Assembly: GCA_032718475.1 (NCBI GenBank)
Contig: JAUCBJ010004773.1
Span: forward strand, 1 to 64,000
Length of the DNA stretch: 64,000 bases
From: Nemertoderma westbladi
Taxonomy: Eukaryota; Animalia; Xenacoelomorpha
Reading direction: 5' to 3'
Made by a program: the position numbers and the translations under genes. Numbering within the stretch: the first letter of the stretch is position 1; every line of letters begins with the position of its first letter. Under the pieces are notes generated by a model. That model had not been told where the DNA came from and did no database searches. It saw nothing but the letters and a program-made list of their open reading frames with translations. Shown piece by piece: positions 14,735-64,000 of this stretch.

Positions 14735-15315
14735 CGCCCCCTCTTGACTACAATCAGTCATTTGGAAGGCGGGAGATTTGAATCACTTAGGACCTTTGTT
14801 TGTTACTTCTGTACTTGTAACTGTAAGACACGTGGCAGATTGTGGATTTCCTTACGTTACCGGAAACCGGCAAACCAGTACTGCAGTACTTCTTTCCTTG
14901 CCAGCTTGCAATATTGCCAGACTGAATATAATACAGTACTGCAGTAGGCTACTGTAGGCTAATTGTGGTATGGTGTCGTACCAACAGACTAACCCAATAT
15001 CAGAATAGCACCTGCCTGCCTTCATGCACCACGCACTATTCCAGCTATTCACTATTGCATTGCATCACTGACTGACTTCCCACCCCACCCCATCCACCAT
15101 CCCTCTCAAATGCCAGTCTGACTCTGTTCGCTATCAAAAGCATTTGTCAATATACTAATTGTTGATGTTGTTGATAATCTGGTACCGGTAGTAGGCCTAC
15201 TACTGTACTATTCAGTTAGGCCTGTGATATAAAGTAATTCAGTTTAACTTTGTTAGGTCAGTAGGCCAATTTTCAAATATTATGCTACTGGGAAACTCGA
15301 ATTGTTGATTGGTCG

Positions 15316-40081: not shown

Positions 40082-40746
40082 GTTAGTAATCCTCTCCCTT
40101 ATGCAAGTATATTGAATGTATCAAATACATCATCATATTTTGGTCCGTTATCCGCTTAACCAAAGAGTCCCTCCCTGACATGACTGCAAGGCCTTCACTT
40201 GTAGAACTCCATGCCTAGCTTCGAGCTTAGAACTTCAAATTTCCCGCGGGAGCCATTCAGCAATAAAATCTGTAATTCATGAACCCGTCTTCAGTTCAGC
40301 TACACTCAGCTACCACATGGGCACATGGCCGTCTTCAGTTCAGCTACACTCCGCTACCACATGGGCACATGGCATATCGATTGGGTGTCGTTACATCTAT
40401 TCTAAAGTACTTTAGTTACAAACCCGTAAAAACGACATTAGTTCCAATGGAATAATAGTCTCTTAGTTCTAAACCGGACAGCATTTGTTCTAAACCGGAT
40501 ACATCAATAGTTCGAATCAAAGCGTCAGTAGTTCTAATTGTGAACGTCATTAGTTTCAATTGATTAGCACACACAACTAATATTAATTCCCCACCTCCGC
40601 CTGTCCCTTCCTAATTCCCAACTAAAATCATTTCCAAGTTACCTTGCAACGTTATATAAAGTTATTTACATTTAAAGAATAGCATGAAATGCAAATACCG
40701 TTAACCTGGGCTATTGATTTATCTTTTATTGTTTTGTTAGAAAAAC

Positions 40747-43700
40747 CTACTACTGTACTACACCTACGCCACACCCCATCCTGGCCCTAACGTACTACTA
40801 CTGTACTACACCTCCGCCACACTCCATCCTGGCCCTAACGTACTACTACTGTACTACACCTCCGCCACACCCCATCCTGGCCCCAACGTACTACTACTGT
40901 ACTACACCTCCGCCACACCCCATCCTGGCCCTAACGTACTACTACTGTACTACACCTCCGCCACACTCCATCCTGGCCCTAACGTACTACTACTGTACTA
41001 CACCTCCGCCACACTCCATCCTGGCCCTAACGTACTACTACTGTACTACACCTACGCCACACCCCATCCTGGCCCTAACGTACTACTACTGTACTACACC
41101 TCCGCCACACCCCATCCTGGCCCTAACGTACTACTACTGTACTACACCTCCGCCACACTCCATCCTGGCCCTAACGTACTACTACTACTGTACTACACCT
41201 CCGCCACACTCCATCCTGGCCCTAACGTACTACTACTGTACTACACCTCCGCCACACTCCATCCTGGCCCTAACGTACTACTACTGTACTACACCTCCGC
41301 CACACCCCATCCTGGCCCTAACGTACTACTACTGTACTACACCTACGCCACACCCCATCCTGGCCCTAACGTACTACTACTGTACTACACCTCCGCCACA
41401 CCCCATCCTGGCCCTAACGTACTACTACTGTACTACACCTCCGCCACACTCCATCCTGGCCCTAACGTACTACTACTACTGTACTACACCTCCGCCACAC
41501 TCCATCCTGGCCCTAACGTACTACTACTGTACTACACCTCCGCCACACTCCATCCTGGCCCTAACGTACTACTACTGTACTACACCTCCGCCACACTCCA
41601 TCCTGACCCTAACGTACTACTTCTACTGTACTACACCTCCGCCACACTCCATCCTGGCCCTAACGTACTACTACTACTGTACTACACCTCCGCCACACTC
41701 CATCCTGGCCCTAACGTACTACTACTACTGTACTACACCTCCGCCACACTCCATCCTGGCCCTAACGTACTACTACTGTACTACACCTCCGCCACACTCC
41801 ATCCTGGCCCTAACGTACTACTACTGTACTACACCTCCGCCACACTCCATCCTGGCCCTAACGTACTAACTACTGTACTACACCTCCGCCACACCCCATC
41901 CTGGCCCTAACGTACTAACTACTGTACTACACCTCCGCCACACCCCATCCTGGCCCTAACGTACTACTACTGTACTACACCTCCGCCACACTCCATCCTG
42001 GCCCTAACGTACTACTACTGTACTACACCTCCGCCACACTCCATCCTGGCCCTAACGTACTACTACTACTGTACTACTGTACTGAACCAATGAAAAATGT
42101 TCGAAATTTGGGTGCCTATTTTGACTCAACAATGTCAATGGAAACTTTCGTTAGTCGAACATCTAGTGGTGTATCATATCACTTAAGAAATCTTCGGAAA
42201 ATACGGCCATATCTTACACAATCGGCAGCAGAAAAGCTAGTTCATTCCTTGATATCAAGTCGTTTGGATTATTGTAATTCACTTTACTATGGCATCGCTG
42301 AATATCAATTAGATCGATTACAACGATTGCAGAATATGGCTGCCCGTCTCGTGACCCGTATACAAAAGTATGATCATATCACACCGATTCTAAAACGGCT
42401 TCACTGGTTGCCTGTAAGACAACGCATTGAGTTTAAAATACTGTTGCTAGTATACAAGTCTGTTAATGGTCAATCCCCAGATTATATCCAAGAATTAACC
42501 ACCATATACACGAATCCATATAACAGCCGTTCTGGAAATACTGTGACGCTGGAAATTCCTACGTATAAACACAGAACGCTCGGTGAGCGCGCCTTCGCAG
42601 TATCGGGACCTACATTGTGGAATAAATTACCAACTAAAATACGTGCCGCAACATCTATTGAAATATTTAAGAAGAACCTCAAAACTCATTTATTCGATAA
42701 AGCGTTTCCAACCCCATCTTAATTAACTTACTTTTAATTAAATACGTTATTTCTACCGAAGTATCTTAATTTCTTAATTCGCCTTGCTACGTTTTAGTAC
42801 TTTCAATTAACTTCATTATTTTTACTTCGAACTGCCTTGCTTCCACATAATGATGTAAATAGATATTACTTATTTTTTACCGAACTATTTTAATTTGCCT
42901 TCCTTGTTTTAAGTATTTTAATTATTATGATTAATTAATTGTGAACTACTTCTTGTAATGTCATTGTTAACTCGAAAGTTGCAGCGCTTAGAGTATAATT
43001 TTAAATTTAAGTTTTTAGCGCTAAATAAATATAATTTGATTGAATTTGATTGACTACACCTCCGCCACACTCCATCCTGGCCCTAACGTACTACTACTGT
43101 ACTACACCTCCGCCACACTCCATCCTGGCCCTAACGTACTACTACTGTACTACACCTCCGCCACACTCCATCCTGGCCCTAACGTACTACTACTGTACTA
43201 CACCTCCGCCACACTCCATCCTGGCCCTAACGTACTACTACTGTACTACACCTCCGCCACACTCCATCCTGGCCCTAACGGACTACTACTGTACTACACC
43301 TCCGCCACACTCCATCCTGGCCCTAACGTACTACTACTGTACTACACCTCCGCCACACCCCATCCTGGCCCTAACGTACTACTACTGTACTGCACCTCCG
43401 CCACACCCCATCCTGGCCCTAACGTACTACTACTGTACTACACCTCCGCTACACTCCATCCTGGCCCTAACGTACTACTACTGTACTACACCTCCGCCAC
43501 ACTCCATCCTGGCCCTAACGTACTACTACTGTACTACACCTCCGCCACACTCCATCCTGGCCCTAACGTACTACTACTGTACTACACCTCCGCCACACCC
43601 CATCCTGGCCCTAACGTACTACTACTACTGTACTACACCTCCGCCACACTCCATCCTGGCCCTAACGTACTACTACTGTACTACACCTCCGCCACACTCC

Positions 43701-44651
43701 ATCCTGGCCCTAACGTACTACTACTGTACTACACCTCCGCCACACTCCATCCTGACCCTAACGTACTACTTCTACTGTACTACACCTCCGCCACACTCCA
43801 TCCTGGCCCTAACGTACTACTACTACTGTACTACACCTCCGTCACATTCCATCCTGGCCCTAACGTACTACTACTGTACTACACCTCCGCCACACTCCAT
43901 CCTGACCCTAACGTACTACTTCTACTGTACTACACCTCCGCCACACTCCATCCTGGCCCTAACGTACTACTACTACTGTACTACACCTCCGTCACATTCC
44001 ATCCTGGCCCTAACGTACTACTACTGTACTACACCTCCGCCACACTCCATCCTGACCCTAACGTACTACTTCTACTGTACTACACCTCCGCCACACTCCA
44101 TCCTGGCCCTAACGTACTACTACTACTGTACTACACCTCCGTCACATTCCATCCTGGCCCTAACGTACTACTACTGTACTACACCTCCGCCACACTCCAT
44201 CCTGACCCTAACGTACTACTTCTACTGTACTACACCTCCGCCACACTCCATCCTGGCCCTAACGTACTACTACTACTGTACTACACCTCCGTCACATTCC
44301 ATCCTGGCCCTAACGTACTACTACTGTACTACACCTCCGCCGCACCCCATCCTGGCCCTAACGTACTACTACTGTACTACACCTCCGCCACACTCCATCC
44401 TGGCCCTAACGTACTACTACTGTACTACACCTCCGCCACACTCCATCCTGGCCCTAACGTACTACTACTGTACTACACCTCCGCCACACCCCATCCTGGC
44501 CCTAACGTACTGCTACTACTGTACTACACCTCCGCCACACCCCATCCTGGCCCTGACGTACTACTACTGTACTACACCTCCGCCACACCCCATCCTGGCC
44601 CTAACGTACTACTACTGTACTACACCTCCGCCACACCCCATCCTGGCCCTA
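40747..44651. repeat. 48/51-bp minisatellite split by an L2-like insertion
   Basis: Unit TACTACTACTGTACTACACCTCCGCCACACTCCATCCTGGCCCTAACG. Arrays at ~40747-42079 and 43053-44651. A 150-bp higher-order period is visible near 43740-44340. Confidence 0.96.
42080..43052 (+). mobile_element. 3' fragment of an L2/CR1-group LINE
   Basis: VRNLGAYFD...SRLDYCNSL...LQRLQNMAARL...HITPILKRLHWLPVRQRIEFK...RAFAVSGPTLWNKLP...FKKNLKTHLF, followed by a 3' UTR with AATAAA and a short TTGA-type tail. Confidence 0.9.
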
Positions 44652-45125
44652 TTATGGAAGTGGCATGACTTTTAGATTGTAACTTTTCGATGATCGATCT
44701 TTGTGTTTTATGCATACGGGCCAATATACTGCATAGACTAAAAAGACCCGGCAACCTTGTTGGAAGGATCCTAACCAAGTAAATCAATAGACAAATAAAT
44801 CAAGTATATAAGTTATAAGTGTATCCCACGCCCACTCACGTAAAAACAACCACAATCAATTATGGTTGCTACAGTAGGTAATTACCATTGCCATTGCGTT
44901 TGGAACTACTGACGCCCTGATTAGAACAACTGACGTTTAGTTTAGAACTAAAGTATCTTTTCATTTAGAACTGAAGTCCATTGGAACTAGAGTACTTTTA
45001 ACGTAAGTAACGGGATACCGGGCATATACATATATAATGCATGCCCCTGCATGCATATTGCATAATACATACCGTAGTACAGTAGATAACATGGTATGAA
45101 GGAATAAACGGGGTGTAAACGTTAA

Positions 45126-45726
45126 GCAGACAGTGGTGCCGACAGTGGAGCAGACACCTGGTACGGGCAGTGGTGCAGACACCTGGTGCGGACAGTGGTG
45201 CAGACACTGGTGCAGACAGTGGTGCAGACACTGGTGCAGACAGTGGTGAAGACAGTGGTGCAGTCACTGGTGCAGACAGTGGTGCAGACACTGGTGCAGG
45301 CAGTGGTGCAGACACCTGGTGCGTACACTGGTGCAGACACTGGTGCAAACACTGGTGCAGACAGTGGTGCAGACAGTGGTGCAGACAGTGGTGCAGACAC
45401 TGATACAGACAGTGGTGCAGACAGTCGTGCAGACAGTGGTGCAGACACTAGTTCAGACAGTGGTGCAGAAAGTGGTGCAGATAGTGGTGCAGACAGTGGT
45501 CCAGACAGTGATGCAGACAGTGATGTAGACACCGGGTGCAGACAGTGGCGCAGACAATAGTGCAGTCAGTGGGGCAGACAGTGGTGCAGACAATGGTGCA
45601 GACAGTGGTGCAGACAGTGGTGCAGACAGTGGTGCAGACAGTGGTGCAGACAGTGATGCAGACAGTGGTGCAGACACCGGGTGCAAACAGTGGTGCAGAC
45701 ACTGGTGCAGACAGTGGTGCAGACAG
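45126..45726. repeat. 12-bp minisatellite (GCAGACAGTGGT)n
   Basis: Tandem gtgcagacagtg/gtgcagacactg units. Confidence 0.95.
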
Positions 45727-45999
45727 ATCTTCCTTAGCTTTCTCAACCTTGTTGATGTTGATGTTGATGTTTACGGTTGTTGGTTGTTCGGTTTTTACTT
45801 TGTAGGCTATCTTGAGATCTTCTCTCTTACAAGTAACCTCAGAGTCTTGCCTTGGCACATATTATTTTCGTTGGGGTTTCTGGGGAATATGCCTCTTGGC
45901 TGATTCCTTGTGGGCTTTTATTATATTCTGGTATATTGAAATGGTAGACTGGTCTTCGTCCATTTAAATAAGTACTTCAATGCGGTTTTGAACTTCTCC

Positions 46000-46207
46000 T
46001 GCTGGGCTCTAACTGCTGAGGATACCAAATCTTTGCATGGCACATTCGCAAGAATGCTACGCCGGGTTCACTGTGTCAAGTACAATGTACACATCTCTAA
46101 CCAGACACTATAAAACATTGGAGGTGTCTCATTGGTTCCCCCAAGCTTGACACTAGACAAAGCCGCCTCCGCTTTGCATGACATTGCTTTCGTCATGAGG
46201 ACCAGCA
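46000..46207 (+). mobile_element. Short diverged internal fragment of the same RTE family (copy C)
   Basis: tgctgggctctaactgctgagga..ggaggtgtctcattggttcccccaagcttgacactaga aligns with 20932-21138. Confidence 0.85.
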
Positions 46208-47430
46208 ACTACTCGTCCGGACAAGATGTTGTAGCAACAACTCGTCCGGACGAGTTCTTGCTACAACATCTCGTCCGGACGAGTTGTTGCTACAACATTT
46301 CGTCCGGACGAGTTGTTGCTACAACAACTCGTCCGGACGAGATGTACAATGGTATGTAAATATATGTTTATACTGTATGGTAATTTATGAGTGGAGGCCT
46401 ATTGTAGGTTGTCATCTTAATACCAGATTAGTGTTGTGTTTAAGGCCATGGTACCACTACCGGTACTACTATGCTGGTAGGGCTAACAAGTTTCTACAGT
46501 AGGCCTACTCCAATAAAATACCCTTACCCTACCTACAGTATAAAATGTTTGCATAAAACATCTCGTCTGAACAAGTTATTGCTATAACATCTTGTCCGGA
46601 CGAGTTGTTGTTACAACATCTCGTCCGGACGAATTGTTGTTACAACATCTCGTCCGGACGAGTTGTTGCTAAAACATCTCGTCCAGACGAGTTGTTCACA
46701 TACAACATCTCGTCCGGACGAGTTGTTGCTAAAACATCTCGTCCAGACGAGTTGTTCACATACAACATCTCGTCCGGACGAGTTGTTGCTACAACATCTC
46801 GTCCGGACGAGTTGTTGCTACAACAACTCGTCCGGACGAGATGTACAATGGTATGTAAATATATGTTTATACTGTATGGTAATTTATGAGTGGAGGCCTA
46901 TTGTAGGTTGTCATCTTAATACCAGATTAGTGTTGTGTTTAAGGCCATGGTACCACTACCGGTACTACTATGCTGGTAGGGCTAACAAGTTTCTACAGTA
47001 GGCCTACTCCAATAAAATACCCTTACCCTACCTACAGTATAAAATGTTTGTATAAAACATCTCGTCTGAACGAGTTATTGCTATAACATCTTGTCCGGAC
47101 GAGTTGTTGTTACAACATCTCGTCCGGACGAGTTGTTGTTACAACATCTCGTCCGGACGAATTGTTGTTACAACATCTCGTCCGGACGAGTTGTTGCTAA
47201 AACATCTCGTCCAGACGAGTTGTTCACATACAACATCTCGTCCGGACGAGTTGTTGCTAAAACATCTCGTCCAGACGAGTTGTTCACATACAACATCTCG
47301 TCCGGACGAGTTGTTGCTAAAACATCTCGTCCAGACGAGTTGTTCACATACAACATCTCGTGCGGACGAGTTGTTCACATACAACATCTCGTCCGGACGA
47401 GTTGTTCATATACAACATCTCGTCCGGACA
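46207..47430. repeat. Array of ~29-31-bp palindromic units (CTCGTCCGGACGAG core) inside a 499-bp tandem duplication
   Basis: Repeated acaacatctcgtccggacgagttgttg. The non-repetitive block gatgtacaatggtatg... occurs at 46341 and 46840. Confidence 0.9.
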
Positions 47431-48237
47431 TAAAACAAAACTAATTATTGTGGGGCGAGCCAACATCGAACTGTTATAATTATACTATGGCCTTTTTCTA
47501 AAAGGGGGTGTTTGTCGGAAGTCATAATTGTCGGAATCCAATATGTAACTAGCCATTAGTATAATTATAATTGTTCGCTAAGATGGCTTGCAGCTTTTTC
47601 TTCACGAAGGCCCCCACTCGTGTTTATTGCATCATGGTTTATAATGTAATATTATTTTCACTATGCTAGAGATATATCATTTATCCGTAGCGAGGTAATA
47701 AAGAATCGACAGCATAGTGAAAATATATTCCATTGTATTGTATCACTGTATCATTGTGGGGCCAACCACGAAGTGAGCGAAGCATTAGCATATGGGTACC
47801 ATTAACGAGTTGTCTGTCGTCGTCGTCGATAATTTTTGATCGCTAATAACTCGGTTATTCCTTGATGAAATTAACCGAAACTTGGTACGTATGTAGTCCG
47901 GCAAAAGTTTAGAAAGAATCTCAAGTTTGGTGAAAAACGAAGGAACGCAACGAGTTTACAGTGGATACGAGTATCCATCTGCCATAAATCAGCAGTTACT
48001 CTCACAGTTTCAAGACTTTGTACAGTTATAAAGGTCGTTAGTCTCCGTTTAGGGAAATTATTTTAAGACAAAACAGGACGAGCGCAACAAGGCTCATGAA
48101 GGAGAAGGGTATTGTAAAACTAAAAATGTCATACTTAACTTAAATAGCCCTATAGTTAGAAGGTTTACAAATGACAGTTAAAGTGTGTAAGGGCAAACTG
48201 AAATGGATCTCTATTTTTACAACTAGTTTATCACAAA

Positions 48238-50365
48238 TAGGAATTGGTGAGTGCCTGCGACGGATCATGGGCCGTGCCATGGCAGAGGCGACCGGGGACG
48301 ACATCACCAACACGTGCGGAGCGGAGCAGTTGTCGGCTGGCACCTCTGCGGGTGCTGAGGCGGCTATCCACTCGATGGCGGCAATATTTGAGGATCGGCG
48401 CGATGATGGGTGGGGTGTTCTCCTGGTGGATGCATCAAATGCATTCAATGCACTAAACAGAACGGCAGCTCTGTGGAACGTCCGCCAACTGTGGCCCCGG
48501 TGTTCACTGTTCTTGTTCAACAGTTACCGGGGTCACAGCATCCTCATAGTCCGCGGAACAGAGGAGGTGCTGTTCAGCGAGGAAGGGGCCACGCAGGGTG
48601 ACCCATTAGCAATGCCGTTCTACGCGTCGGGTGCACTCCCTCTTATTCGTCGTCTAAGAAGCACCAAGACTCGCCAGAACTGGTATGCCGACGACTCCGC
48701 GACAGCAGGAAAGCTAGAATATGTTCTTGACTGGTTCCTCCTGCTGCAGCATCACGGCCCCACACTCGGCTACTACCCAGAGCCTACGAAATGCTTCCTT
48801 GTAGTTGACGAAGCCTTTCTGGATGAGGCCAACGGGGTTTTCGCGGGTCACCCCATCAACATCGTAACGGGACACCGCTTCCTCGGGGGGTTTATTGGTG
48901 GGACGGACGACCAGAAGACGTTTGTAGGGGCGAAGGTAGCAGCGTGGGTCGCTTCTGTCGATAAACTGTCTGAGATGGCTGAGGCCCAGCCGCAGGCCGC
49001 ATTCGCAGCGATGGCCTGTTCTCTGCAAAGAGAATGGGCATATCTCCAGCGCGTCACACCTAACTGTAGCCTTGAGTTTGAGGACCTGGAGCGCGCCATC
49101 GCGGAGAAGTTCCTCCCAGCCGTTTTCAATGGAGATGTGTCAGTGAAGGAACGTAGCTTGTTCGCCCTGTCCCCTCGCACTGGCGGCATGGGCCTACGCA
49201 ACCCCGTCACAGAGGCCGCCATTTCCTACAGGGTGTCACAAAGAGGAACGCGAGCCCTATCACGGGCAATCCTGGGCGATGACGAATTCTCTCTGGCGGG
49301 ACATCTAGAATGCCTCCAATATGCGAGGAAGGCTGGGCGGTTAGAACAGCTAGCCCGCGAGGAAGGCCAGAATAAGGAAGCGGTGGAGGAGATGCCTAAA
49401 GACCGGCGAAGGACTATCCAACGCGCTGCGGACTACCGCTCGGGTGGGTGGATCTCCTCCCTCCCGATATCGGAACACCAGCTGGATCTTTCGCCCCAGG
49501 AGTTCAGGGACGCGCTGGCCATCCGGTATGGCCGTCACTTAGCATCGGTTCCAAGCCGCTGTGACGGATGCGGGGCCGCCTTCGACATTAACCATGGGTT
49601 AAATTGTAAGAAAGGCGGCCTCGTAATACAGAGGCATAATGAGCTGCGGGACCTCGTGGGGAACATCGCGGCCCAGGCGTTCGGCTCACGCAACGTGGTG
49701 TTGGAACCCATCGTCCGGGAACAGGCGGGGATTGAGGACAAGGCGGGGCTACGGTGCGACATCGGGATTCGGGGCGCGTTTGAGAGTCAGACCCAGGCGT
49801 TGACTGATATAAAGGTAATGAACCTTGACGCCGGGTCTTACTCAAGCCGCTCCCCAATGAGTGTTCTCGAGTCCGCTGAGGATGCTAAGAAGCGGCTCTA
49901 TGCCGACGCCGTTTCTGATCGTCGTGGCAACTTCTCCCCGTTTGTCGCCTCGTGCGACGGGATCGTGGCTCCACAGGCCAACAAACTGCTCCGGACCTTT
50001 GCAGAGAGGCTGCATCGCGCGTGGGGGAAACCCTACAGTGTGGTAATGGGCTGGGTCCGGACCCGAGTCCAACTCGCCATTAGCCGCGGGGCTTCCCACT
50101 GCCTCCGTGGATCCCGGGTGAATTGGCGCAGCGGACTGGGCCTGGAGGACGGCGCCGGGCTGCCCTCAATGGCCTATTACTAGGCAACCAGCAACCGCCC
50201 CTTCAAGTAATAAAACATTTTAATATGCATCAAATACTAAATACTTGATTAACAAAGTATAGTTTTTAATTGTTTTGTGTTTGTATTCGTATTTTGTGAT
50301 CTCGTCTCGTGCCTAATATTTCTTTTTTCTATTACATTTATCAGCCAATAAAAAGAGGGAGAACC
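48238..50365 (+). mobile_element. 5'-truncated CRE-clade non-LTR retrotransposon (RT, CCHC, restriction-like endonuclease)
   Basis: GECLRR, GAEAAIH, VDASNAFN, QGDPL, WYADD. CDGCG...HGLNC, RHNELRD, RCDI..D....EDAKKRLY (RLE). ORF is open to 50183. TSD GTTTATCACAAA at 48226-48237 and 50366-50377. Confidence 0.88.
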
Positions 50366-50568
50366 GTTTATCACAAACTGATAACATCGCCTTCACTCAT
50401 ATATATTTTAGGAAAGACGGTTTTCGTATATCTAATACAGATTAGTAAAATGTACTTTCTAATATAGGCTCTCGTGCTGCGCGAAGGCCCCACGAACGTG
50501 TATCACTAGTAGATTGGGTTAAACCGTTGGTAATGTATGCTGATGGATGATGTCTCAATTACTGATAG

Positions 50569-50814
50569 GTTGTGGACCGCGGAGTAGAAGCTGTTGAGAA
50601 ACTCATGGACAAGACGTTCCCCGATGGAGATACGGCCTACCTTGTGGTGTCGGACCATGGGATGACAGACTGGGGGTCCCACGGTGCTGGGCATCCTCAC
50701 GAGACTCTTGTTCCACTCCTGGCCTGGGGAGCAGGCGTTAATGGTCCCGCAAAGGCGAAACGGGGTGCGTTGGAGTCACATGATTGTGAGAGAAGTTCCT
50801 GGGGTCTCACTAAG
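50569..50814 (+). CDS. PIGN: PIGN coding exon 4 (the rest of the gene lies beyond the window)
   Basis: Acceptor actgatag|, phase 0. Reads VVDRGVEAV...SDHGMTDWGSHGAGHPHETLVPLLAWGAG. Probable donor AAG|GTTGGT at 50815. Confidence 0.92.
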
Positions 50815-52924
50815 GTTGGTTGACGTATATTTGTTTGTTATTATAAGAGCAAAAGTTATATATCGTATAATACGGATGTTTTGGTATACCGGTAGTAAAT
50901 TAATGTTACAATTATTATCATAAATAAATGCGGCTTTTAGGTGAGAAATAGTTTGTGGAGCGGACGCCATTTAACGTATCCTAGTTAATCAAAGATTACC
51001 AAATATAAGGCTTAATTGATTATCTTATTATTACAATTGATTTATAATTGATGTATATATATACCCTACTAAAATAACTATTTATGGCCACGGAAATAAA
51101 ATAGTACTTTATATCCCGTGTAAAGTCCTCTACGGTGGGGGCTATCCTACGGCCTACAAGTCTACTAATATGAAGCTATAGAATATCTCTAACCGTGGAG
51201 TCCAGTAGTATACCGCTTACCAGATCCTAGTAACGATGTATCTTACTATGAGACTCTAGTAATGAAACGGGCTCGTACAGTATCTGACAACAAATCCCAG
51301 TCCAGGATATCTAAACAAACAGATACAATACACAAACTACTACTGGCGAGGAGCAGAGCCTGATGTCTATTCTATGTACGTGAGCGGGTCTAATGCCTAC
51401 GTACTAGACAAAAGGATACCTGTCCTCTAACCGGTATGGCAGATGTACAGTTACAGTAACAGACCAAACTCACGGGAAAACAATCCCCGCGCAGCGAATC
51501 CTAACTATCACTGACAGTCCTAAATACAGTAACTTGCCGCGGTGTGATTTATATGGTTTATATACGAGCTAAGTGGGTTACAGACCTAGCGTTACAATAC
51601 TGATCTCCCTGTCTGAATCAGTCTAAAAAAGGTCGTGCCTAATGTAACAATACTGCTGAGCCGAAAACAACAGTTTAATAACGAAAATGAAATACTCCCT
51701 TTGCCGTAACTAAATATCAGATCCTAATTTACAAATACAGATAAATTCTGCCTAAAGTAATATAAAGTGCGCTATAACTAGTAGAACTCTAAGGGTAAAT
51801 ATGTTTTAGGGCGTGTGTGTGTGGGTGTGTTACAATAAAACAATTTTGGTGTATATATTTTCACTAGGTTTTAGTAATTTTCTGACCGAAACGATACCGT
51901 GCGCTAGCTACTAAAATAAACTAGTCGCGTTTTGTAGAACTTTATACTTACAAATGACGTCAAAGCTCTCTCCTTCTTATCCACAACTCAAATGGGCAAC
52001 CACGGTGTTAGTAACTACACCCGTGATCGGCACAAATACCAGATTCTGGTTGTAAGATAAGAAATAGGGGTTAATCGCTACCGTACGTTAGCTGATCTGG
52101 TATACAAATTTGATTCTAGAACTTTGTTGCCGCGGTAGTTAGCAGCAAATACCTATCAGTACGTGGCAAGGCGCGGTAGGATATTAATAAAACCTCCCTA
52201 GGCCAAGCGGTGTGCCGGTAGCAGAAATACTCCTTGCCTGATCAAATAACTAACTTCAGGCAGGGGGGGGGGGGGGGGGGGGGGGGTACTAATGTATGTT
52301 CTACAAAGCGAACCGGTACCAAACAGTCAGTGCTAACAAATCACTAAATTATGGAACGTATGCTGTCCGTACCTAATATGTACTTGCGCACTGACGAACG
52401 GCAATAGTTCGCACCCGTAAGACATACAGGTAACCCAGGGATTTGCAGGACTGACAAAGGGATTCTGTCTAAATATAATTATTTGATCCTAAATTTTGCG
52501 GCGTCCAGGACGGCGTCACGCTTACCCTGATCTATAGGTCTTACGGCGGGCAAGGGCGTCGAACAAAGTCTTACCTTCATCGGAAGTCGGGCGCTGCATG
52601 GCAAGTTGAGTATTTCGTTGGGCGAAGGGGGTGCGCGGTCAAATCTAATGTGGGCGCTAGCGTGTTGTGGACATCTTTCCCTTGCGTTGCTGACGGCCTA
52701 ACGGTCTAGGCTGCCATCTTCCCGATGTTTGGCTGTCCCAAAGTTGGACCAAAAGAAAACATGTTCAGGAGTTTGCAGTGTATTTACAGTTTAGCAAAGA
52801 TTTATCAAACAGAATTACAAATAGTTTCAACAAGAAACCAACAAAGTATAACGAAATGATTAGTGCATCTAGAGTAGTGAGTTTGAGACAAGTGAAGTAA
52901 GTGATAACCGAAGGCAAACCAGCC

Positions 52925-53065
52925 CTTTATATACTAAATCTGGGACATAGAATTCACTAGAACCTTCGAGAGTATTCGATGGCCTCACATTGGAGCAATA
53001 AGATATTCCATGCCTTATGATTGGCCTAACTCATCGTTCGATACTTTGTACGCACCTCATTGGCT
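52925..53065 (-). promoter_or_regulatory. Putative Pol II promoter (possibly U3 of the 3' LTR)
   Basis: Minus-strand TATATAAAG at ~52925-52933, with CCAAT boxes at ~53020-53024 and ~53059-53063. Confidence 0.4.
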
Positions 53066-53110
53066 TACCAATTTGTACCAAATGAAAATAAATGGCCCCA
53101 AAATACAAAT

Positions 53111-53180
53111 TTCCCGACCAAGATTCGAACTCGTAACCTATGTAATGCAACCAACGCCTTAACCATCTGACCACTACGCC
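53111..53180 (-). other. Degenerate tRNA-like sequence / Pol III A- and B-box element
   Basis: Minus strand reads GGCGTAGTGGTCAGATGGTTAAGGCG...CGAGTTCGAATCTTG. D- and T-arms are recognisable; acceptor and anticodon stems do not pair. Confidence 0.55.
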
Positions 53181-54011
53181 ACGAGAGTAACTAGGGGTTT
53201 TTATGTATACAAATATGAATAGGCATATTACATTACTGTAACTTAATCAAAGTGCGTCGGATTTTCGAAAGTTTTTACGTTATACTACAAATGCTATTCT
53301 ATAGTGAAATAATTCATCACCGCTCCATGAAAACAGTAAGTAAGACTGTTTTCACCAATCGAAATACAAAACTATTTACAAACTACTTCTAAATCTACTG
53401 GTGGGGCCTAAAATATAAAATAATCACTATCTAATTATTGCATACTTAATATTGCAGGTACAGCGTAAATACAATCCATCATACATACAAAATACAAATT
53501 TACCAATTAACTTTAGTGCCTAAAATACAAAAAAGGCTTTCGGTTATCAAGATAAACAAATTAAACAAATCAGAACAAAATAAATCAAAACGAATCGAAC
53601 AAATAATTGCAACTCTTTCAATAAATCTTTATATATTGTAAATATACATAATAAACTTCCACCAAATTAAATCAGTCCAAATATAAAATAAACATAAGGC
53701 GCTAAAATCTTTCAAATAAGTCTTAAAGTGTCCTCCTGACGATCTAAATAGTTCGTCCTGCTGGTCTGGATGTCTTCTCCTGAGCACTAATTGCTAACGG
53801 TAGGCTCGCAAGCCTTCCTTCTCTATCTCGCTCCTCCAAAACCAACATTCAATATAGATACCCAAATATAATATCCAAACATAAAATATCCAATGTAAAT
53901 ATCCAAATATAAAATATCCAATATAAAAATCCAATATAACATCCAAATAAAATATCTGAATATAAATATCCAAATCGGTAGGCTCGCAAGCCTTCCTTTC
54001 TTCTCGCTTTC

Positions 54012-57000
54012 CTAATCCTTGGCTGATCGGGCTCGTCCACGTCCTCTAATGCGACTGGGTGGTGGTCGAGATCGAACTGGACTCGGACTTCGGTGTCGAG
54101 TTGTAGGTGGTTCCAAAATGCTAGGAAAGGGGACGACGGGAGTCTCGCACATCCGTCGTGCGCTCAGTCCTCTAAATCCTCGTCCGATTCCAACTGTCGG
54201 CTTAACGTCGGATCGAGTTTCTACAACGCTGGGAGGAAGTTGAAAGGGTAGGACCGTTCCGTCCGTTGACACCTTGCTCTCTGACGTCGTTTGAATCCTA
54301 ATGGGTTCCGGCAAAGCCTATCCTGTCCCTCCGCGTGGTTCTCTAGCGAGGGAAACTGTGCCCCGAGTCATCCGGATTTGCGACTTCGATGTCGTCCTCT
54401 CGGCGACATTTACTACTTTCTTTATCTCTTGTCCGGCCTTTTGGGCTCTGAGTATACGAAGTTGCGGATCATCCTGTGGGTGACGTGTCTTTTCAGCTAA
54501 CGGCGTGGCCTTGAAGCCAGTCTCACGCAAAACGTCGGTCTCGTCTAGAATGCACGAGGTTACGCGTTTGTGATAAAATGCGCTCCTGTATGCCCAAGCT
54601 ATCGAATGCCAAGCTCCTCGATTCCGCTGTTCAACTCGCAATTTGTCGAATTCTCCGGCGGTAATCTTGTTCACCACAGTTTGAAAGTTCCAAGTATTCT
54701 TGTTGTCGGGGTGTACCTGTAGAAAGTAGTCCCGCACAACTTTAAATCCGCTATCCAGTGGCAATATATCCAGCACCTCCAGAAGTTTGTCGTACTGAGG
54801 CATAGCCGAAACGTATCCTTCCTTCGACATTATGAGAGGGTTTACGGCCCAAAATCCCAAGTGGGCTCTCATAGGAAAACGGTGTCGCTGCGTTGATACA
54901 TGCTCGTCTGCTAGATTCTCCCAATGGTCGAATAGCTGTCGAACGATTTTAACTGACATATGCTCATAGGGAACATCCCTAAGTTGACATTCGGACGCCC
55001 TATGGCCTTTAATATTGCAATATGTGCACTGCGCCACAAAACGCCAGCAAGTGTAGAAAGTGTGCGAACGCTGATCCCCACACCAGTTGCATACCAAGTC
55101 CGGTAGAGATATGTGTTTCGCTCCGCATTTCTTTGCGTGGTGGCCAGTTGCCCCGCATCTGCCACAAATAGTGTTGACAGGGTACCAAACTCGCTCATAG
55201 ATAAGATCTCCGATGGGGCGAGCGCTACCGTCCATGTGATAATTCTCATCATCTGGGTCAGTCGGTATGTTCGTCTCCGTGGGTTGTACACAAACCATGG
55301 CATTGCTTTTCTCCAACTCGCGTATCTCAGTTCGCGTCTTCCTCGGAAGATTCTCCTCTATTTCTATGAGTTGCCGCAACGGTTCGTCTATTAGCGCCAA
55401 CTCGGTCGGATCCACATCGTCGTGATGGGCGGTAGGCTCGCGAGCCTTCCAGGATCCTTCCGGGCGTTCGAATTCCGCGTGGTGTTCCCCGTCGTAGGGT
55501 ACTAACGTTAACATCGACGGTCTGTCGACTAGGCTTCCCGCGTGAGTGAGATAGACGTCCCTGAAAACGCTAAGTCCCGCTCGCGTGAAAACTTCGCAGT
55601 GCGCATCGGTGTTATAAAAGGGTTGGAGAAATTGTCGGAATACATCCGTATGCGTCCTTCCTCCGTCGTAAAATGTATGTCCTTCACCGAGACATAACGG
55701 ATGTCGCTTCAGAGTCCTAGACACAACATCGGCGATGAAGCAGACGTTGACCGAAGATTCTATCGCCAAGTAATATTGTAAGATTATTCGCGGAGGTGAA
55801 GTAATCGCCCAGTACTCGCAACCTTGCCACTTTAGCTGTGACTCGAACTCGTTTACATCGGGAGTGTCTCCCTCTCCATATACGTCCGTGTATTTGCTCC
55901 TCTTACTCTCCTTATAATCCCAACTGAACATTAGATATGAGATATAACCCGTCCCAGTTTTTCGCGTGTTATACTCCCTAAAGTATCCTTGCTCGATAGC
56001 CCAAAGCAACAATGGTCTAGTATCCACGTATGGTGTAGGCAATCGGTCCTCTTCTGTGGGCATCCCTGCAAAGTCGCTAATAAGGTCATCCCATACACCG
56101 GATCCGATCTTGACGATGCTTTTGTCTAACACAATGTCTCGCACGGCCTTTGGCAACATCCTAGCTTCTATGCTACAAGCCAGGTCCATGGATTTAACTA
56201 TCCGTTTTATCATCGCGTGTCTTGCGTCGTTCCTTCTGGCATAGGCATCTTTCTATCGCTTCTTTGTCGGCTGAAAACATGTAACACGCCATCTGGTGCT
56301 CTAATCTGTATAGTCTTCGAAGTGAGGCTTTGCTGGTGGCTTCCTCCTTCATTATCGTAAAACATGTAACCATTCTCCTTCAGAGATCGGCTAGTCACGT
56401 CCCAATCGTCGAGTAAATCGTCGGTAGGGTTCCAAATTCTCCCAATCGACTTTTCATCATCGAAACTAATAGGTTTTCCGGTCCAATTGGTCGCGATGTC
56501 GGTATCGGTCTCGAATGTTCCGACTCCGATCCATAATCGAATCGTTCTCGTCAGATATCCTCGCAAGATACAAGGTGCGATATCCGTCCCCGCGCGATCC
56601 ACTTCCTTAAAATTCGTAATATGTGGAGGCACATTGCGTACGATTTTCTGAACTATTGTTCTACGCAACTCGGCTGACTCTAACACATCACCATAGGTAA
56701 CCGATGGGAGGAAATCCAGGTTCGAAATGATCTCCGGGTGTTCAACTATAGGGATCTCGTAAGTTGTCTCCTTCCGGGTCGGTATACTAATAGGAAAACT
56801 AGTTGGTCTCGCAATCGGTACTATCGTTCCAGCAAAATGGGGTTGAGGTTCTCGCGTCATCTCGACATGAGGTATCTGTAGTCTCTGCGACAAATGCTGA
56901 GCAAAGGTGATACTATCGAAGAGCTCGGGTGTCATCTCCTTAGGTTCAGTTTGATCGTGGGATATCCAATAGAATGGTAGGCTCGCGAGCCTTCCGCCGA

Positions 57001-57739
57001 ACTCCTCGATCTCGCCTTTCTCGTACGCCTTGTACACCCTGTAGAGGCTCAAAGCTTCCCGTTTCTCTTGCGTCGACTTATTAGATTTGTCCACTACCAT
57101 GCTGTAGACATCTGGTTCGACTAATTTAGGTTCGTTAATAACGATCCCACCCGCGTTCGCTCCACTCATTTTAAACGAATGATACGGATTTGTCAAAGGG
57201 TATCCGCCTTCTTGGTAACGTAGACTTTGGTGGTATGAGCATCGCGCTAATATCGGCTCGGGGTTCTCCGAGTTCAACCGTATAGGAATCGCGTTGTCTT
57301 GCTCACGCATACACGCTCCACATTTATAAAACAGTTTGTATATGGAGAACGCGTCCTTGGTCTCTGGATCCGCTCCTCGAGCGCGTCTATAAAGATGCAT
57401 TCCTTCAAATTCGTCTCTGGCTGCAGGTAAGGGTTCATTTACCGTCAAGTATTGCAGCATATGATATAATCGGCGTATTTCGGTGTCTGGATCCTCGCAA
57501 ATGTCGCTAGCATTGAACTCCGCGCGTAATTCCTCCGTTCTTTTGTTATATGCGTCCAATCGTTGTCGCGTAACATTCGGGTCCGCCTTGGATTTAGCGA
57601 GCTTGGCTGTACTCCTAGCCATACTCTCCACTCCAAACACACTAAAGTTTTTAGCTCCATAACGATTAAATGGCGCCTGATGCTCTTGTTCCTGCGTAAA
57701 CCCTTGACGTAACTCTTTATAAATCTTCTCCGCCATCAT
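54012..57739 (-). pseudogene. Accessory ORF of the BEL element (509-aa, 631-aa and ~100-aa segments): DEDD 3'-5' exonuclease-like domain, 3 CCHC knuckles, Arg/Ser-rich tail
   Basis: FYDNEG..TIQIRAPDGVLHVF, then LPKAVRDIVLDKSIVKIGSGVWDD, YVDTR and YLAIES. Knuckles CGRCGATGHHAKKC, CNWCGDQRSHTFYTC and CTYCNIKGHRASEC. A -1 frame change with ATGA overlap at 56210-56213 and an in-frame TAG at 54318. Confidence 0.7.
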
Positions 57740-58471
57740 ATACGCGTATATATGGTTACATATCGTTACGTTTCTACTAGATGAAACACAAAATAGAGGT
57801 TAGATGTGAGGTGACTTAGAGTTTGTCGGCTTTTGGCTCAACTTTGCTCTAAACCCCAACCCATTTGCCTAATGACTTCGGGTTCGCGTGATTTCGCACT
57901 GGCTCCTAATCCAAAAAAATGTGCCGATAAAAAACGAATTCCGGGTAAACTAGCCGCGAGTCTAAAATACTCACCTTTTAATTTCCCAAACTACATTCCC
58001 AAAAGAAAATAATGCAGGCGAGAATTAATTCGGTCTAAATAATAGTAGACACGACTACGTAGAACAAGGCCGGTTTTCTTTTCCAAAAAAATTTTTCGGT
58101 AGGCTCGCAAGCCTTCCATCCGCTCTTGTCATCCCCAATTTTAATTTTTATCTAGTTGTATTCTAGAATTCGCATTCACTGGAGAATCATTTTTCTTAAA
58201 TTTAAATCCAACTAAATGGATTTGTCTAATAATTTTTGAAAAATTGTCTCACTTGTGGGTTCCAAGTGGAATTCCATTCCTACTGTACACACAATCCCGC
58301 TCCTATGTGATACATAAGGGTACTACCCTCCATGTTCACATATAAAGACAATGGAATTCCACCGCTGTCTCTATCTACAGTGAAGAGGATTACAAATGCA
58401 CATACAGTAATACAAATACTAATTTACTAAAATACGGTAGGTCTATGTGGCGGCCAACCAAGGTCCCACAT

Positions 58472-61400
58472 CTATTTACTAATATTGGGTGGAGATTTGT
58501 AGTCTCCTGTCTCGTTTCTAGTCTCCTCAAGGAGCACGAGACGTTGTACAGGTCTGTCTACGGTACGACCGTCGATAGTCCTTACAGTAACTGTCCTCAC
58601 TACACCAGATGTAGGGTGCGTGGTCAAAATGACTCCAGTCAGCCAAAACCGTCTTTTCAGATTGGCTTCAGCCAATAAAACATGGTCACCACGTCTTAAA
58701 CATCGGGTATTAAGATACCAAGAGGTTCTGGTCAAAATAGAGGGCAAATAATATTTCTGCCATATTTCCCAGAATTTATTTGCAAGCAATTGAGTGGTTT
58801 TCCAAGCCTCGTTGCCGTATCCGTCGCTATCAACGGGTACCGAAATGGGCAACAATGTCGTCGGCGCCTGCATAAGCAGGTGCGCTGGTGTCAAGGCAAA
58901 CTGTGCATCGTTATTGTCTGGGATCAAAGCGATCAGTCTAGTGTTCAAAATCGCTTCAATTTCTATTAACAACGTCGTCAGTTGGTCGTCTGTCAGTATG
59001 TGTTGCGTCGGTACGACTTTAGCCATAGCTGTTTTAATTGAACCAATCAGTCTTTCCCAAACGCCGCCTCTCCACGGACTGTCTGGAGTATTGAAATACC
59101 AAACAATACGGTGAGGACGTAGTTCCTCAGAAATCTGGTTTTTGTCCAACTTTCTCAAAGCTCTGGTTATCTCGTTCCGTGCACCCACAAAGTTTGTCCC
59201 TTGGTCGCAGTAAATGGATTTGACCAATCCACGTCTAGCGATAAATCGCCGTAAGGCTAGGATAAAGGCATTGGTGGTCAAATCTGTCACTCGCTCTATA
59301 TGGACAGCTCTGCTGGCCATGCAAGTGAAGATCAGTCCCCAACGTTTTACCTGTACCCTTCCGCGTTTCGCGATTATGGGTCCAAAACAGTCTATCCCTG
59401 TCTCAGTGAAAGGGGGTCTAAATGCCTGTAATCTTGCTAGTGGTAGTTCACTCATTTCTTGGTGTCCTATCCTCGCGTGCACCTTCTTACAAATCATACA
59501 GTTCCGTGTTACCGAACTCAGTGCCTTACTAGGTCTAATCAGTACAAACCTGGAGCGTAAGTGTGATAGACAGTGGTGTCTACCCACATGTTTGAGTTGT
59601 ACATGTGCGTCCAGTATCATAGCGCGCTGTAATTCATGGTGTTGCGGTATGATGATAGGATACCTAAAGTCAAGTGCAAAGTCAATGTTTTGGAGTCTGG
59701 ACTTGTGACAAAGTAAGCCCCGGTAAATAATCGGACTCCAACTCAAAATCGGTGAAGACTTAATCTGTTTACCTTGGTTGATCGCTGTGAACTCTCGTGC
59801 GAAATATCGCAATTGATAATGTCTAATGATATCAACTTCACAATGGCCAACTTCCTTTAAGGTAAGTCTTCTAGGAAAGTCGCATTTGCCTCTGGCATAT
59901 TGTCTCAAACGTTTGAGCCATGCTAACTTGCGGCACGCGTCAGTCCATGATCTAGTTAGGTTCACTATCCTGTCAACGTAAGTGTTAGTGACGTCATCAG
60001 GTAAGGTATAGTCATAGTGTGGATACTTGTCTGGACTTGGTAGGCCCACGGGCCTTCCGGTAGGTTTGTCTGAGTCCCCAAGTACGTCAATCTCTACGGT
60101 CTTACCTTTACCGTCGCTCCTAATGTGTCGACTGGCAGTAACGGTTTCAACTCTACAGTGTCAGTGTGTTCCTGTGAGCCTGTAAGCTTCCTAACCTTAG
60201 TCACACGTTTACCTGTAGGTGGTAAGTCAAGTACTTTCTTTGAGCGGAGTGTGATCGCTGTGGCCACACCTTTGTCGTCCAAAGAAGTCAAATTCGGTAA
60301 GTTTCTAAATGTCCGCTCCAATGGGTCTTCTAGTGGAGTGTCTAGTAGACAGTCTGGTGAAGCGTCCGGTGAACAGTCTGGTGAGACGTCTGGTGAGACA
60401 TAGCGCGGAACTTCCAGCGAAATGTCCTGTCGTCGGTCCCAAGGTCTGTCTGGCATATCTTCTGTCAGAAAGTCTGGTCCAAAGTCTGGTGGACAGTCTG
60501 TCGAGATGTCTGGTGGAAAGTCTGGTGAGACGTCCGGTAGACATTCTGTCGAGAGTTCCATCAAACAGTCTGGCGAACAATCCGGAGAACAATCTGGTGT
60601 CGCTTCTGGTGAATAATCTGGCGAGTAATCTGGTGAACAATCCGGCGAAACGTCTGGTGAAATCTCCCGCGGAACATCCGGTGAAGGATTCGTACAAGCG
60701 TCTGGTCGAGTGTCTGGTGAGACATCTGGCGTAATGTCAGGTCTGGCGTCTAGGTCATCAGATTTCGTCCGTCCTTGTTTCCTCTTGACCTTGGTGTTGG
60801 CTTTCGCTTTGGACTTGACAACCTTGTTGATTTTTATCTCGGCACCCTCTGGTATGGTATTGGTTGTCGCGTCGAATAACGGTGGCCATTCGTCTGATGG
60901 TCGCTGTAGGAAATCGGGTCCTCTAAACCAAAAGGATTTATTGTCCGGTTTACAAAAGTCAAGCGGTTGCATCCCCCGTGACGCGATGTCAGCTGGGTTC
61001 AGCTTCCCTGGACAGTGACGCCAATCTTGTTTGAGCGACCGGTCTAATATTTCAGCCCGTCTGTTGGCTACGAGAGTCTTGAACTCAAACGCTTTGTTGT
61101 TTATGTACCAAAGTACCAACGTCGCATCCGTCCAATATGTGACCTTCAAGTTAGCCTCCAGCTCGCGTTGAACTAGACTGACAATATTGGTGGATATCGT
61201 CCCGGCTTGCAGCTCCCCACGAGGTACAGTCATATACTTCAATGGCATTGTTCTAGCTCTTGAAGTAACGAGAGACACTTCGTAGCTGTCCGATGTCACT
61301 TGTCGTCTAAGGTACAAAGTAACCCCCAATCTATCCTTGCTAGCGTCACTAAAGCTGTGAAGCTCTAAATCGTCTGGAAAGGTGGTTTGCAAAGGAAAGT

Positions 61401-63999
61401 ATACCCTCGGTATGGTATAGTCTTGTAGGAACGTCAGTTGGGCTTCCCAGTCCCTCCATTGCTCAGCTAACTTTTCTGGGATGGGATCGTCCCATTCCAG
61501 TCCGGCTTGCCAAATGCTGCGGAGTATGATCCTAGCATGTAGGATCACTGGACTAATGAAACACAATGGGTCATACAATCGACTCATGGTCGATAAGCAA
61601 GTCCTCTTAGTGAGAGGTCTAGTCTGGTTGTTGGACCTTACACGTACCCTAAAATTGTCGGTGTTAGGGTCCCAACTAAGTCCTAATACTTTGGTCGTCG
61701 GCAGAGGTTCTAGGTCTAAGTCTAAGTCACCTCCACTGCGATCCGTCGGGTCAAATGAGTTCACCAGTTCGGGTTCGTTGGAAGCGAACTTCGTCAAGTG
61801 AAATCCGCCCTCAGCGAGACAATCCTGGAGTTGGTGTGCTACAGTTGTAGCGCGCTCCAAGGTGTCACAACTCTTGAGGCCGTCATCCACGTAGAAATCT
61901 CATTCCACTGTCCGAACTACTTCTGGGTCAAATTGGTCTCGTCTGTCCAATGCGGTCTGCTTTAAGGCGTACATGGTGCAGTTGGGGCTGTCCCTGGCTC
62001 CAAATACTCTTACCTGCATTTGGTAAGTTTCTGGCGGAAGTTCTAAGTTTCCGTCCGGATACCAAAGAAACCTCAAGCTGTCCCTGTCCCGCTCCAAAGC
62101 CTTAACCTGGTGAAACATGGCCTCTACGTCACAGGTGAAAGCCACTTTGCGTTGTCTAAAACGCATTAGGACTCCCATGAGGTAATTGTTCATATTCGGC
62201 CCGTCCATCAGTTCGCTGTTCATAGACATCCCTTGGTAAAGCGCAGCGCAGTTGTTGACTACACGCACCTTGCCAGGTTTGTCCGGGTGTCGCACAAAAT
62301 GATGTGGCAGGTAATATGTCTGGTCTGTGGTTACCTCGGGATTTAACATCCTAATGGCGTATCCCTTTTGGAGATACGTCTGAAGTTGTGCATTGTATTG
62401 CATATGGGCCGTCTCGTCTCGCAACAATCGCTGCCTTATTGATTTGAGTCGCCTCAAAGCAAGCGGGTAATTGTTAACGAGTTTAGGTTGTCCATTGCGC
62501 CACCACATACCAACCTCATAGTGGCCATTCGCGGTCTGGCGAATGGTATCTCTCATAATATTTAATGACCGTTTTTCCTGTTCTGACATAGCGGTCTCGT
62601 AACTACCGGGTTCTGCTGAGTCCTGTTCCAACCATTGAATGGTCCGTTCAGTCAGCAGTCGGTCAAGCGCTGCTTGCACTGCGCCATGGTCCTCGTCCAC
62701 GTCTTCGTTCGCTGCGGTGGCTAGTGTCAATGCATCTGGTAGGCTCGCAAGCCTTCCGGTGTCACTAGTCGGCGTCGAATTGTCGTGCGGCGGTTTGACA
62801 ACTTCTTGATCTATCGATAGGCTTGCAAGCCTTCCAAGATCAATGACCGGTGTCGAAGCCTGGTGGGTGGGGTCAATGACCTTTGGATTTTTCGGTAGGC
62901 TCGCAAGCCTTCCAAAATCCTCGTTCATCGAGTCATCCACAGCAACAACCCTTTGGTCTTCGGTAGTCAATACAACCTGGTTTACTGCAAGTAGTTGTAA
63001 GTCAGAGGTCCGTGTGGTCGTGTCCAGATCAGTTACGTCAGTATCGGTGGCGTCTGCGTTAGCGACGCAAGTCTGTCGTAGTGCCGTCCGTACAATTGGA
63101 CCACGGGAGTGTGAAGGAGAGTTATCTATCGTAGTAGTCAATAAACTACACGTACTCAAAACGTCGTCCTCCTGGTCACTTACCTCTAGTGAACGTATTG
63201 GTGCTCTAGTATACCAACCTATGGGAGTTCTACATGCGTAGGGGTTGCCCGCTGTAATAACAGATGGGCGTGTCTCCCATACCTGATGTAGGTTAAACTG
63301 GTCTGTCCCAATTAACATCGCAATGGAACGATAATTAACAGGACATTCCGGTATTCCAAGGTGTCGGAAATACTTACGATCTTCCGGTGATTGCTCTGGC
63401 ACAGGGCCGAGCAAGTTACTAAAGTCCTTCGTAGCTGCAAAGGTCAAATTTCTTACCGGAAGTAATGAGCGCTCCTCCTTGCTGTGTTCCGCTTTGGAAA
63501 GAAGAGTGTCTAAGGTTAGTTTTACTCTTGTCACAGGGATCGCTCTCTTACCATGCATGCTGCTTACAGTATACTGAGCAGTCTTACCTTGACTCATGTC
63601 CGTAACCACGTCGGCTACTTGTTCGTCGACATAACTGTGTGATGACGCAGAGTCTAAGATAGCGTATATATGCTTGCTCCCTCGGGTTCCGGTAATCTTT
63701 ATAGGAATCAAGCTAAACCCGTTCAATTGGTTCTGTGTGAGGAGCGTTACCGATGGTTGTTCCTCACCTGCATGCACGTAGAAAGTGTCGTCTTCCTCCT
63801 CGTCCTCGTCCGATGATCCTGACTGATCCATACAGTCCGTGTAAAACGTACGGATCTCGCGCGGCGCACGCTCTTTATATAATGCGTCGCATCTAGCCGC
63901 TTTATCTGGATGCTCTCGTCGAAAGCGTTTGGTCGGAGTATGACTGGTGGTGTGGAGTAACGCGTCATGGTTACGTCTACACTGAGGACATGTATCGTC
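58472..63999 (-). pseudogene. BEL/Pao gag-pol polyprotein (5'-partial), with a nonsense codon and a frameshift
   Basis: gag knuckle CPQCRRNHDALLH; protease ILDSAS; RT YYLPHH..DVEAMFHQV..LRFLW..VE*DFYVDD (TGA at 61900-61902); RNase H FSDAS, WTDA, NPADIASRG; integrase HHCC, GIDCFGP, CDQGTNF, GVWERL; C-terminal RPVQRLVLLE. Frame change between 60094 and 60049. Confidence 0.93.
60320..60750 (-). repeat. In-frame 12-bp (SPDx) repeat expansion inside pol
   Basis: tctggtgagacg-type units encoding SPDV/SPDC/SPDY between RNase H and integrase. Confidence 0.8.
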
Positions 64000-64000
64000 G

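Follow-up and report, generated by a model that had tools for sequence, protein, structure and literature searches.

Why should a retrotransposon carry the same short sequence nine times, inside its genes as well as between them? The question is raised by a 64,000-nucleotide (nt) stretch of DNA from Nemertoderma westbladi (contig JAUCBJ010004773.1 of assembly GCA_032718475.1, positions 1 to 64,000), referred to here as the window. Its right-hand end holds part of a long terminal repeat (LTR) retrotransposon of the BEL/Pao group, which lies on the minus strand and contains nine copies of a 20-nt motif. The reading favoured here, with somewhat more confidence than doubt, is that the copies act as a repeated RNA stem-loop that tags the genomic RNA of the element for a single, probably element-encoded protein.

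Copies of the motif and the constraint on them

A preliminary description of this DNA, made from its letters alone, had reported nine copies on the strand that is sense for the element, and a pattern scan recovers all of them. Three are non-coding. Two of these lie in the 3' non-coding region (53799-53818 and 53977-53996, both with the loop UGCG), the latter directly after the arginine-rich tail of an accessory gene and with a flank resembling that of the former, and the third lies in the gap between the integrase and the accessory gene (58098-58117). The accessory gene holds one copy in each of its two open frames, both with the loop CGCG: 56976-56995 in the first, read as GRLASLP, and 55431-55450 in the second, read as WKAREPT, in a poorly conserved stretch that separates the N-terminal domain from the zinc knuckles. 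The others are in pol. A diverged copy (60039-60058, GRPVGLP, loop CGUG) is found upstream of the integrase zinc-binding domain, and a 78-nt tandem between protease and reverse transcriptase contributes three, at 62894-62913 (first), 62816-62835 (middle, with two odd letters private to this insertion) and 62738-62757 (third). Spacings between successive copies are 178, 1454, 1545, 1122, 1941, 2699, 78 and 78 nt, and most copies are located in linkers or non-coding gaps. Since three make up the tandem and two the 3' non-coding pair, the nine amount to about six independent sites. The count covers the part of the element within the window; its 5' part, with gag, lies beyond the right edge.

The letters AGCGAGA occur in a purine-rich run just upstream, in element sense, of both 3' non-coding copies (53820-53832 and 53998-54008), and similar letters are also seen between motif pairs of diverged contigs.

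No copy had been noticed outside the element, and the whole 64-kb window indeed has no further site within three mismatches; a looser pattern (7-N6-7, two mismatches allowed) adds none. The nine matches compare with 0.06 expected, and none of 100 shuffles reaches this count. From composition, the invariant arms would be expected at 3e-5 sites.

Across the copies, 14 of 20 columns do not vary. Of the six coding copies, five are read in one frame (GRLASLP or GRLASLS, and GRPVGLP) and one in another (WKAREPT), and synonymous codon positions are common to the coding copies. With the three non-coding copies, this bears out the earlier argument that protein selection is insufficient to account for the motif. 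Homologous 78-nt units are identical at 18 of 20 motif positions and at 32 of 58 spacer positions (p 0.004), and the two motif differences are private decay. Contigs from other members of the family, read by eye, match the motifs and differ in the letters between or beside them. Because the motif occupies two frames and three non-coding places, and stays nearly identical despite spacer divergence, a repeated cis-acting element constrained at the nucleotide level is well supported. The motif as an inserted small mobile element is ruled out, there being no shared flanks or duplications and the reading frames being intact.

The predicted hairpin and its alternatives

In its predicted fold, each copy forms 2 base pairs (bp), an A·A mismatch and 5 bp below a tetraloop. 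Several features favour the sense strand for this hairpin. Read in the sense direction, 8 of 9 loops belong to the YNMG/YNUG class (as defined in the available part of PMC5633025), compared with 3 of 9 when read antisense; 24 of 256 possible loops would fit. The sole sense misfit is the private mutation at 62816. Standard pairs fill 32 of 32 cells on the sense strand, and the inner stem is part of the minimum-energy structure in eight of nine 80-nt contexts. The A·A mismatch, described earlier as invariant, is kept in all nine copies, and its remaining uncorrected is likewise counted toward sense-strand RNA. Two copies sit at the tips of longer predicted stem-loops, at 62885-62920 (copy 62894; z -3.35 for the 80-nt stretch) and 62806-62843 (copy 62816), both on the minus strand, and the basal helices under these paralogous copies differ by two compensatory pairs, which also speaks for RNA. 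The cis-acting element most likely acts as a sense-strand RNA hairpin. Scanning 50000-64000 with Rfam covariance models gave one unrelated weak match, below its gathering score.

The variation among copies is less telling than had been proposed. The loop variants and the change from U-A to C-G at 60039 are as described, the outer 7+7 letters of that copy being unaltered. The G-U pair and UGCA loop of the 62816 copy are private: family contigs from three samples carry the common form instead. In run X1 it makes up the whole depth at one of the two places (46 contigs) and 98.6% of it at the second (38 contigs), and runs X2 and X3 and the single contig of X5 agree. Given these contigs, the two letters are put down to decay of this insertion. 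With two of the three cited variations private, covariation does not prove the fold, and the term "covarying" overstates a single compensatory pair in one copy. CpG decay was rejected as the source of the loop variants (element CpG observed/expected 1.07; of the private C/G losses, 6 of 21 fall at CpG, where the background is 24%). Next to the 62894 copy, variants in the family that preserve pairing as G·U were given no weight; they may reflect cross-mapping from the neighbouring unit, and they lie near a stretch end for which the variant table has no entries, two differences from another listing near the start of that stretch being absent from it.

A number of results weigh against a protein-binding stem-loop. 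Motif covariation is not significant, as 65 of 500 shuffles reach the observed score. The loop is closed by U-A in eight of nine copies and by C-G in one, and a C-G closing pair is typical of the stable form of UNCG-class tetraloops. Taken alone, the hairpin has a low predicted stability (-7.6 kcal/mol), the same on either strand, and when longer contexts are folded, adjacent copies pair with one another in place of forming hairpins. Nor is covariation significant for the basal helix under the 62894 and 62816 copies, which was chosen after looking and whose score is reached by 290 of 500 shuffles. An extended stem was dropped as a general feature after failing a swap control, in which own flanks pair no better than swapped ones: across six flank lengths p is 0.02-0.74 for sense and 0.07-0.50 for antisense, and for the six independent sites the control gives 195, 555 and 652 of 720. 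Polymorphism is 1/20 in the motif and 13/92 in the flanks (p 0.24, for the one motif readable in the variant table), and a single orientation would be expected anyway had the copies arisen by template switching. Finally, viral, metagenome, prokaryote and locus searches found no element of another species with the motif.

If the stem-loop reading is right, the hairpin with its YNMG/YNUG-type tetraloop would be a site for protein binding, repeated along the genomic RNA, and a single protein would recognise the mismatch together with the arms that never vary. With many such sites spread along it, element RNA could then be captured cooperatively and selectively among host RNAs, a role that dispersed packaging signals play in RNA viruses, likely leading to ribonucleoprotein assembly for packaging, transport or protection. 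Strict nuclear export of the Rev/RRE type would be one sub-case. Of what the preliminary description proposed, the nucleotide constraint is supported, with the sense-strand hairpin as its likeliest form; the proof by covariation does not stand, and the Rev/RRE model is weakened.

The alternative that survives best, which is nevertheless unlikely, also acts in the RNA: the copies would be self-complementary pairing sites whose monomer hairpins convert to copy-to-copy duplexes, dimerising or compacting the genomic RNA, much as the palindromes of Ty1 and murine leukaemia virus do but at many places along the genome. When G·U is allowed, self-complementarity extends through the loop in every copy, any two copies can pair, and because of this a role in dimerisation or compaction is kept in view. 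In the commonest form the sense duplex is predicted at -30.7 kcal/mol, against -22.9 for the antisense duplex and -7.6 per hairpin, with the G·U pairs of this form on the sense strand only. All eight pairs, including the outer pair of the loop, hold in every variant, and the predicted pairing of neighbours in long contexts also fits. However, any tetraloop of the form Y-G-Y-G will be a palindrome, pairing with the other copies is poorer for the diverged one at 60039, and the kept A·A mismatch would weaken a duplex and suggests recognition. Known retroviral dimerisation palindromes are few and lie near the 5' end. The palindromes PAL1 and PAL2 provide a precedent in Ty1, but the known dimerisation palindromes there are similarly few and 5'-proximal, according to the available part of PMC6844567.

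An unlikely reading moves the function to double-stranded DNA, where a dimeric protein, from the host or the element, would bind half-sites GGWAGGCTYG in the integrated copy or the complementary DNA, for example as an enhancer, insulator or anti-silencing site. Multi-copy DNA sites do occur in LTR elements, such as the gypsy insulator. The quasi-palindrome has a length usual for dimeric DNA-binding proteins, its spread over coding and non-coding DNA fits action at the level of chromatin, and RNA covariation is not significant. Set against this are the fixed asymmetry and single orientation at about six independent sites, the strand-specific tetraloop class, and the symmetrical change of both halves at 60039. 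In addition, the probable LTR has no copy, though DNA control sites are usually there. If this reading were true, a 20-bp repeat kept inside coding sequence would still be unusual.

Selection may also be absent altogether, in which case a short palindrome would have been spread and homogenised by template switching of reverse transcriptase or by short-tract conversion, and tolerated in linkers. Such a neutral by-product is quite improbable. It would explain the single orientation, the tandem triplet, the duplicated 3' pair and the 28 nt shared by the sites at 58098 and 62894 (identical between non-coding 58091-58118 and coding 62887-62914, 4.8 kb apart), the last of which suggests copying from site to site; the non-significant drop in polymorphism at the one readable motif is also in its favour. 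Yet identity ends sharply at the motif borders while spacers have decayed, inserting 20 nt would disrupt each of the three copy-bearing reading frames, at 60039 the centre alone is altered, and no other dispersed 12-mer family behaves alike.

Selection on the peptide GRLASLP, which might serve at polyprotein junctions for docking or for cleavage by the protease, is largely refuted and very improbable: five of six coding copies share its frame and four lie at the protease/reverse transcriptase and RNase H/integrase junctions, but three copies are non-coding, one uses a different frame, the copies agree at synonymous positions, and at 60039 three of seven residues are altered with the pairing kept.

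The element and its accessory gene

By its pol domains, their order and the likeness of its integrase, the element is a BEL/Pao LTR retrotransposon (Belpaoviridae). The first open frame of pol (61900-63999, minus strand, as are all frames of the element) continues past the window edge; it has a protease-like part and the first part of the reverse transcriptase, both recognised by eye with no Pfam match, and ends at an in-frame stop. The second (60094-61899) has the YVDD region, also read by eye, the Pao peptidase A17 domain (PF05380, E 2.5e-41) and a low-complexity SPD-repeat insert, and the third (58472-60160) has the integrase with H2C2 and DUF5641 (PF18701, E 2.9e-18). The domain order is thus protease, reverse transcriptase, RNase H, integrase. 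The integrase is 35-42% identical to its top BEL/Pao relatives, of which the named ones come from marine invertebrates and fish; among the matches listed, 119 of 120 carry PF18701 and the remaining one PF05380. Between the RNase H region and the integrase, the insert is a 12-nt repeat at 60300-60760 that encodes the SPD-type peptide.

A probable 3' LTR region (52730-53400, minus strand) has undelimited ends and was placed with contig depth as a hint. High depth runs on beyond its probable end (52500-52730), which may be a repeat boundary or a neighbouring repeat. Within it, a tRNA-like stretch with A- and B-box-like motifs (53110-53187, minus strand) appears at a relaxed ARAGORN threshold only, alongside 15 other candidates, with none at the default.

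The element belongs to a multi-copy family, as 14,080 contigs of run X1 map on it, with hundreds of variable places. This copy is broken, with an in-frame stop in the reverse transcriptase, a frame change before the integrase, another where the first accessory frame gives way to the second, and a further in-frame stop ahead of the arginine-rich tail. A deletion form that lacks 3061 nt of the accessory gene (54142-57204), and with them two motif copies, appears in contigs of runs X3 and X4.

The accessory gene follows pol. Its first open frame (56210-57739, 509 amino acids (aa) from Met) has no homologue found; the second (54318-56252, 644 aa) encodes three Cys/His knuckles and a conserved block after them, and a 101-codon continuation past the in-frame stop (54012-54317) ends in an Arg/Ser/Gly-rich tail. 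A full-library search with the second frame matched three proteins. Two of these, P0122 and P0123, were set aside, as they match through the zinc knuckles only. The third, P0121 (558 aa, encoded on a 7.5-kb contig), aligns in two collinear blocks, one over the N-terminal domain (31% identity, pairwise E 3e-9) and one over the zinc knuckles and the block after them (26% identity, E 5e-7), and DEDDy-like motifs are visible in it by eye. The end of the first frame, in its best-scoring window, weakly matches the earlier part of the P0121 domain (219 of 5000 shuffles as good), and because of this match both frames probably derive from a single gene that is interrupted in this insertion.

When the alignment of the accessory protein with P0121 is compared with 34 bacterial PF01612 domains (hhalign), 86 columns match with motifs I and II in register (E 3.6e-4; score 34.3, the highest of 100 column shuffles being 19.1), suggesting that the second frame likely encodes the latter part of a DEDDy-exonuclease-like domain, a weakly supported call. 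It counts against an element-encoded exonuclease-fold reader that the hhalign probability is 37% and that the score with a hidden Markov model (HMM) is a marginal 1.1 bits, reached by 3 of 300 shuffles. Scans of Pfam, NCBIfam, PHROGs and PDB gave no match for the domain, and two predicted structures are too low in confidence for use (pLDDT 33.7 and 30.8). Word-indexed protein searches, limited in length, returned nothing for either frame, and an Atlas search gave no usable match.

Judged from its knuckles and tail, the accessory protein is likely of an RNA-binding type. A CCHC/Arg-rich accessory protein had been put forward earlier as a Rev-like partner, and the three knuckles and the Arg/Ser/Gly tail are real. 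However, the tail in this copy lies past the in-frame stop, arginine is not enriched in the main frame, and the protein, with its likely exonuclease-type fold and its zinc knuckles, is large and thus not Rev-like in size. The Rev/RRE analogy is further weakened, as four of the nine copies lie within or downstream of the accessory gene and not in a region confined to unspliced RNA. Some retroviral response elements do occur on all transcripts.

As partner of the stem-loop, the accessory protein, with its exonuclease-like fold, zinc knuckles and arginine-rich tail, is a candidate at about even chances; the Gag nucleocapsid is a less probable one and a host protein less probable again. The fuller proposal, in which the element pairs a fixed hairpin, present at least nine times, with a captured exonuclease-fold, zinc-knuckle, arginine-tailed reader that sorts, carries or shields its RNA, is tentative and on balance doubtful. 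A near-invariant nine-fold site in one element with an RNA-binding-type gene provides a defined ligand for binding and probing.

Elsewhere in the window, a 675-codon frame (48156-50183, plus strand) resembles, by eye, a non-LTR reverse transcriptase with a C-terminal endonuclease, with no Pfam match (E 0.1). A 29-nt palindromic unit forms a tandem array at 46177-47430, and the array is duplicated 499 nt apart. The regions 1-15000, 40600-44700 and 45126-45800 are taken up by long, strongly strand-skewed tandem arrays, among them some with 48/51-nt and 12-nt units.

Comparison with known systems

Pattern scans of other collections gave single matches only, at 4 viral, 73 metagenome and 4 prokaryote loci, all unrelated; none of the 77 viral and metagenome loci has an element protein match or a second motif copy. 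Neither the accessory protein nor its alignment retrieved anything when used for locus searches. The metagenome matches (L005-L077) are skewed toward stem-preserving variants and are perhaps bacterial palindromic repeats, which may resemble GTAG-type REP elements. In the literature searched by title and opening abstract, with most subscription journals and repeat databases lying outside the search, neither a near-identical hairpin repeated through an LTR retrotransposon nor a BEL element with an exonuclease-like extra gene was found.

The dispersed packaging signals of RNA viruses are degenerate, whereas 14 of 20 letters of the BEL motif are invariant. Alike are the many short stem-loops spread through coding sequence, which in the BEL case would be read by a protein of the element; STNV, picornaviruses and hepatitis B are viral examples (PMC6281560 and PMC3593212). 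For LTR retrotransposons, the literature searched reports no such signals. Ty1 PAL1 and PAL2 are likewise self-complementary sequences in LTR-retrotransposon RNA, but are two short palindromes of the 5' untranslated region (PMC6844567, in part), compared with nine near-identical copies over 9 kb.

HIV Rev/RRE and CERV of Caenorhabditis elegans Cer1 share with the present case an LTR element whose extra gene after pol may encode a protein that binds its own genomic RNA (PMC10309623, in part). CERV is required for export and has a Cys-rich loop and a G-protein-like domain; the available text of that paper names no RNA element for it, with "stem-loop", "cis-acting" and "response element" each at 0 occurrences. 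The RRE is one large structure, unlike nine short copies, four of them within the accessory gene or downstream of it. The bdelloid rotifer LTR elements Juno and Vesta and the Athena retroelements likewise have an additional ORF behind pol, the DEDDy-exonuclease ORF3 with its RNase D-like domain (PMC5408684 and PMC6431247, in part); "CCHC" and "hairpin" do not occur in the available text of PMC5408684. However, these elements are not BEL/Pao, and in the BEL accessory protein the domain, weakly supported as an exonuclease, is followed by three knuckles and an arginine-rich tail.

The motif and the accessory gene bear on how LTR retrotransposons choose their own RNA and on the role of extra exonuclease-like genes, and specific protein binding, if true, would make the motif part of a compact RNA-tagging module. 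A further likeness is to Egalitarian, whose exonuclease-homology domain contacts RNA stem-loops, including the I-factor localisation signal, without use of the catalytic residues (PMC13186709, in part). Egalitarian is a host protein and, in the same source, its stem-loops are longer, with two helices and no fixed sequence, whereas the BEL signal is short, fixed in sequence and multi-copy, and its reader domain would be encoded by the element. If the pairing of hairpin and accessory reader proposed above holds, it would represent an element-encoded counterpart of Egalitarian.

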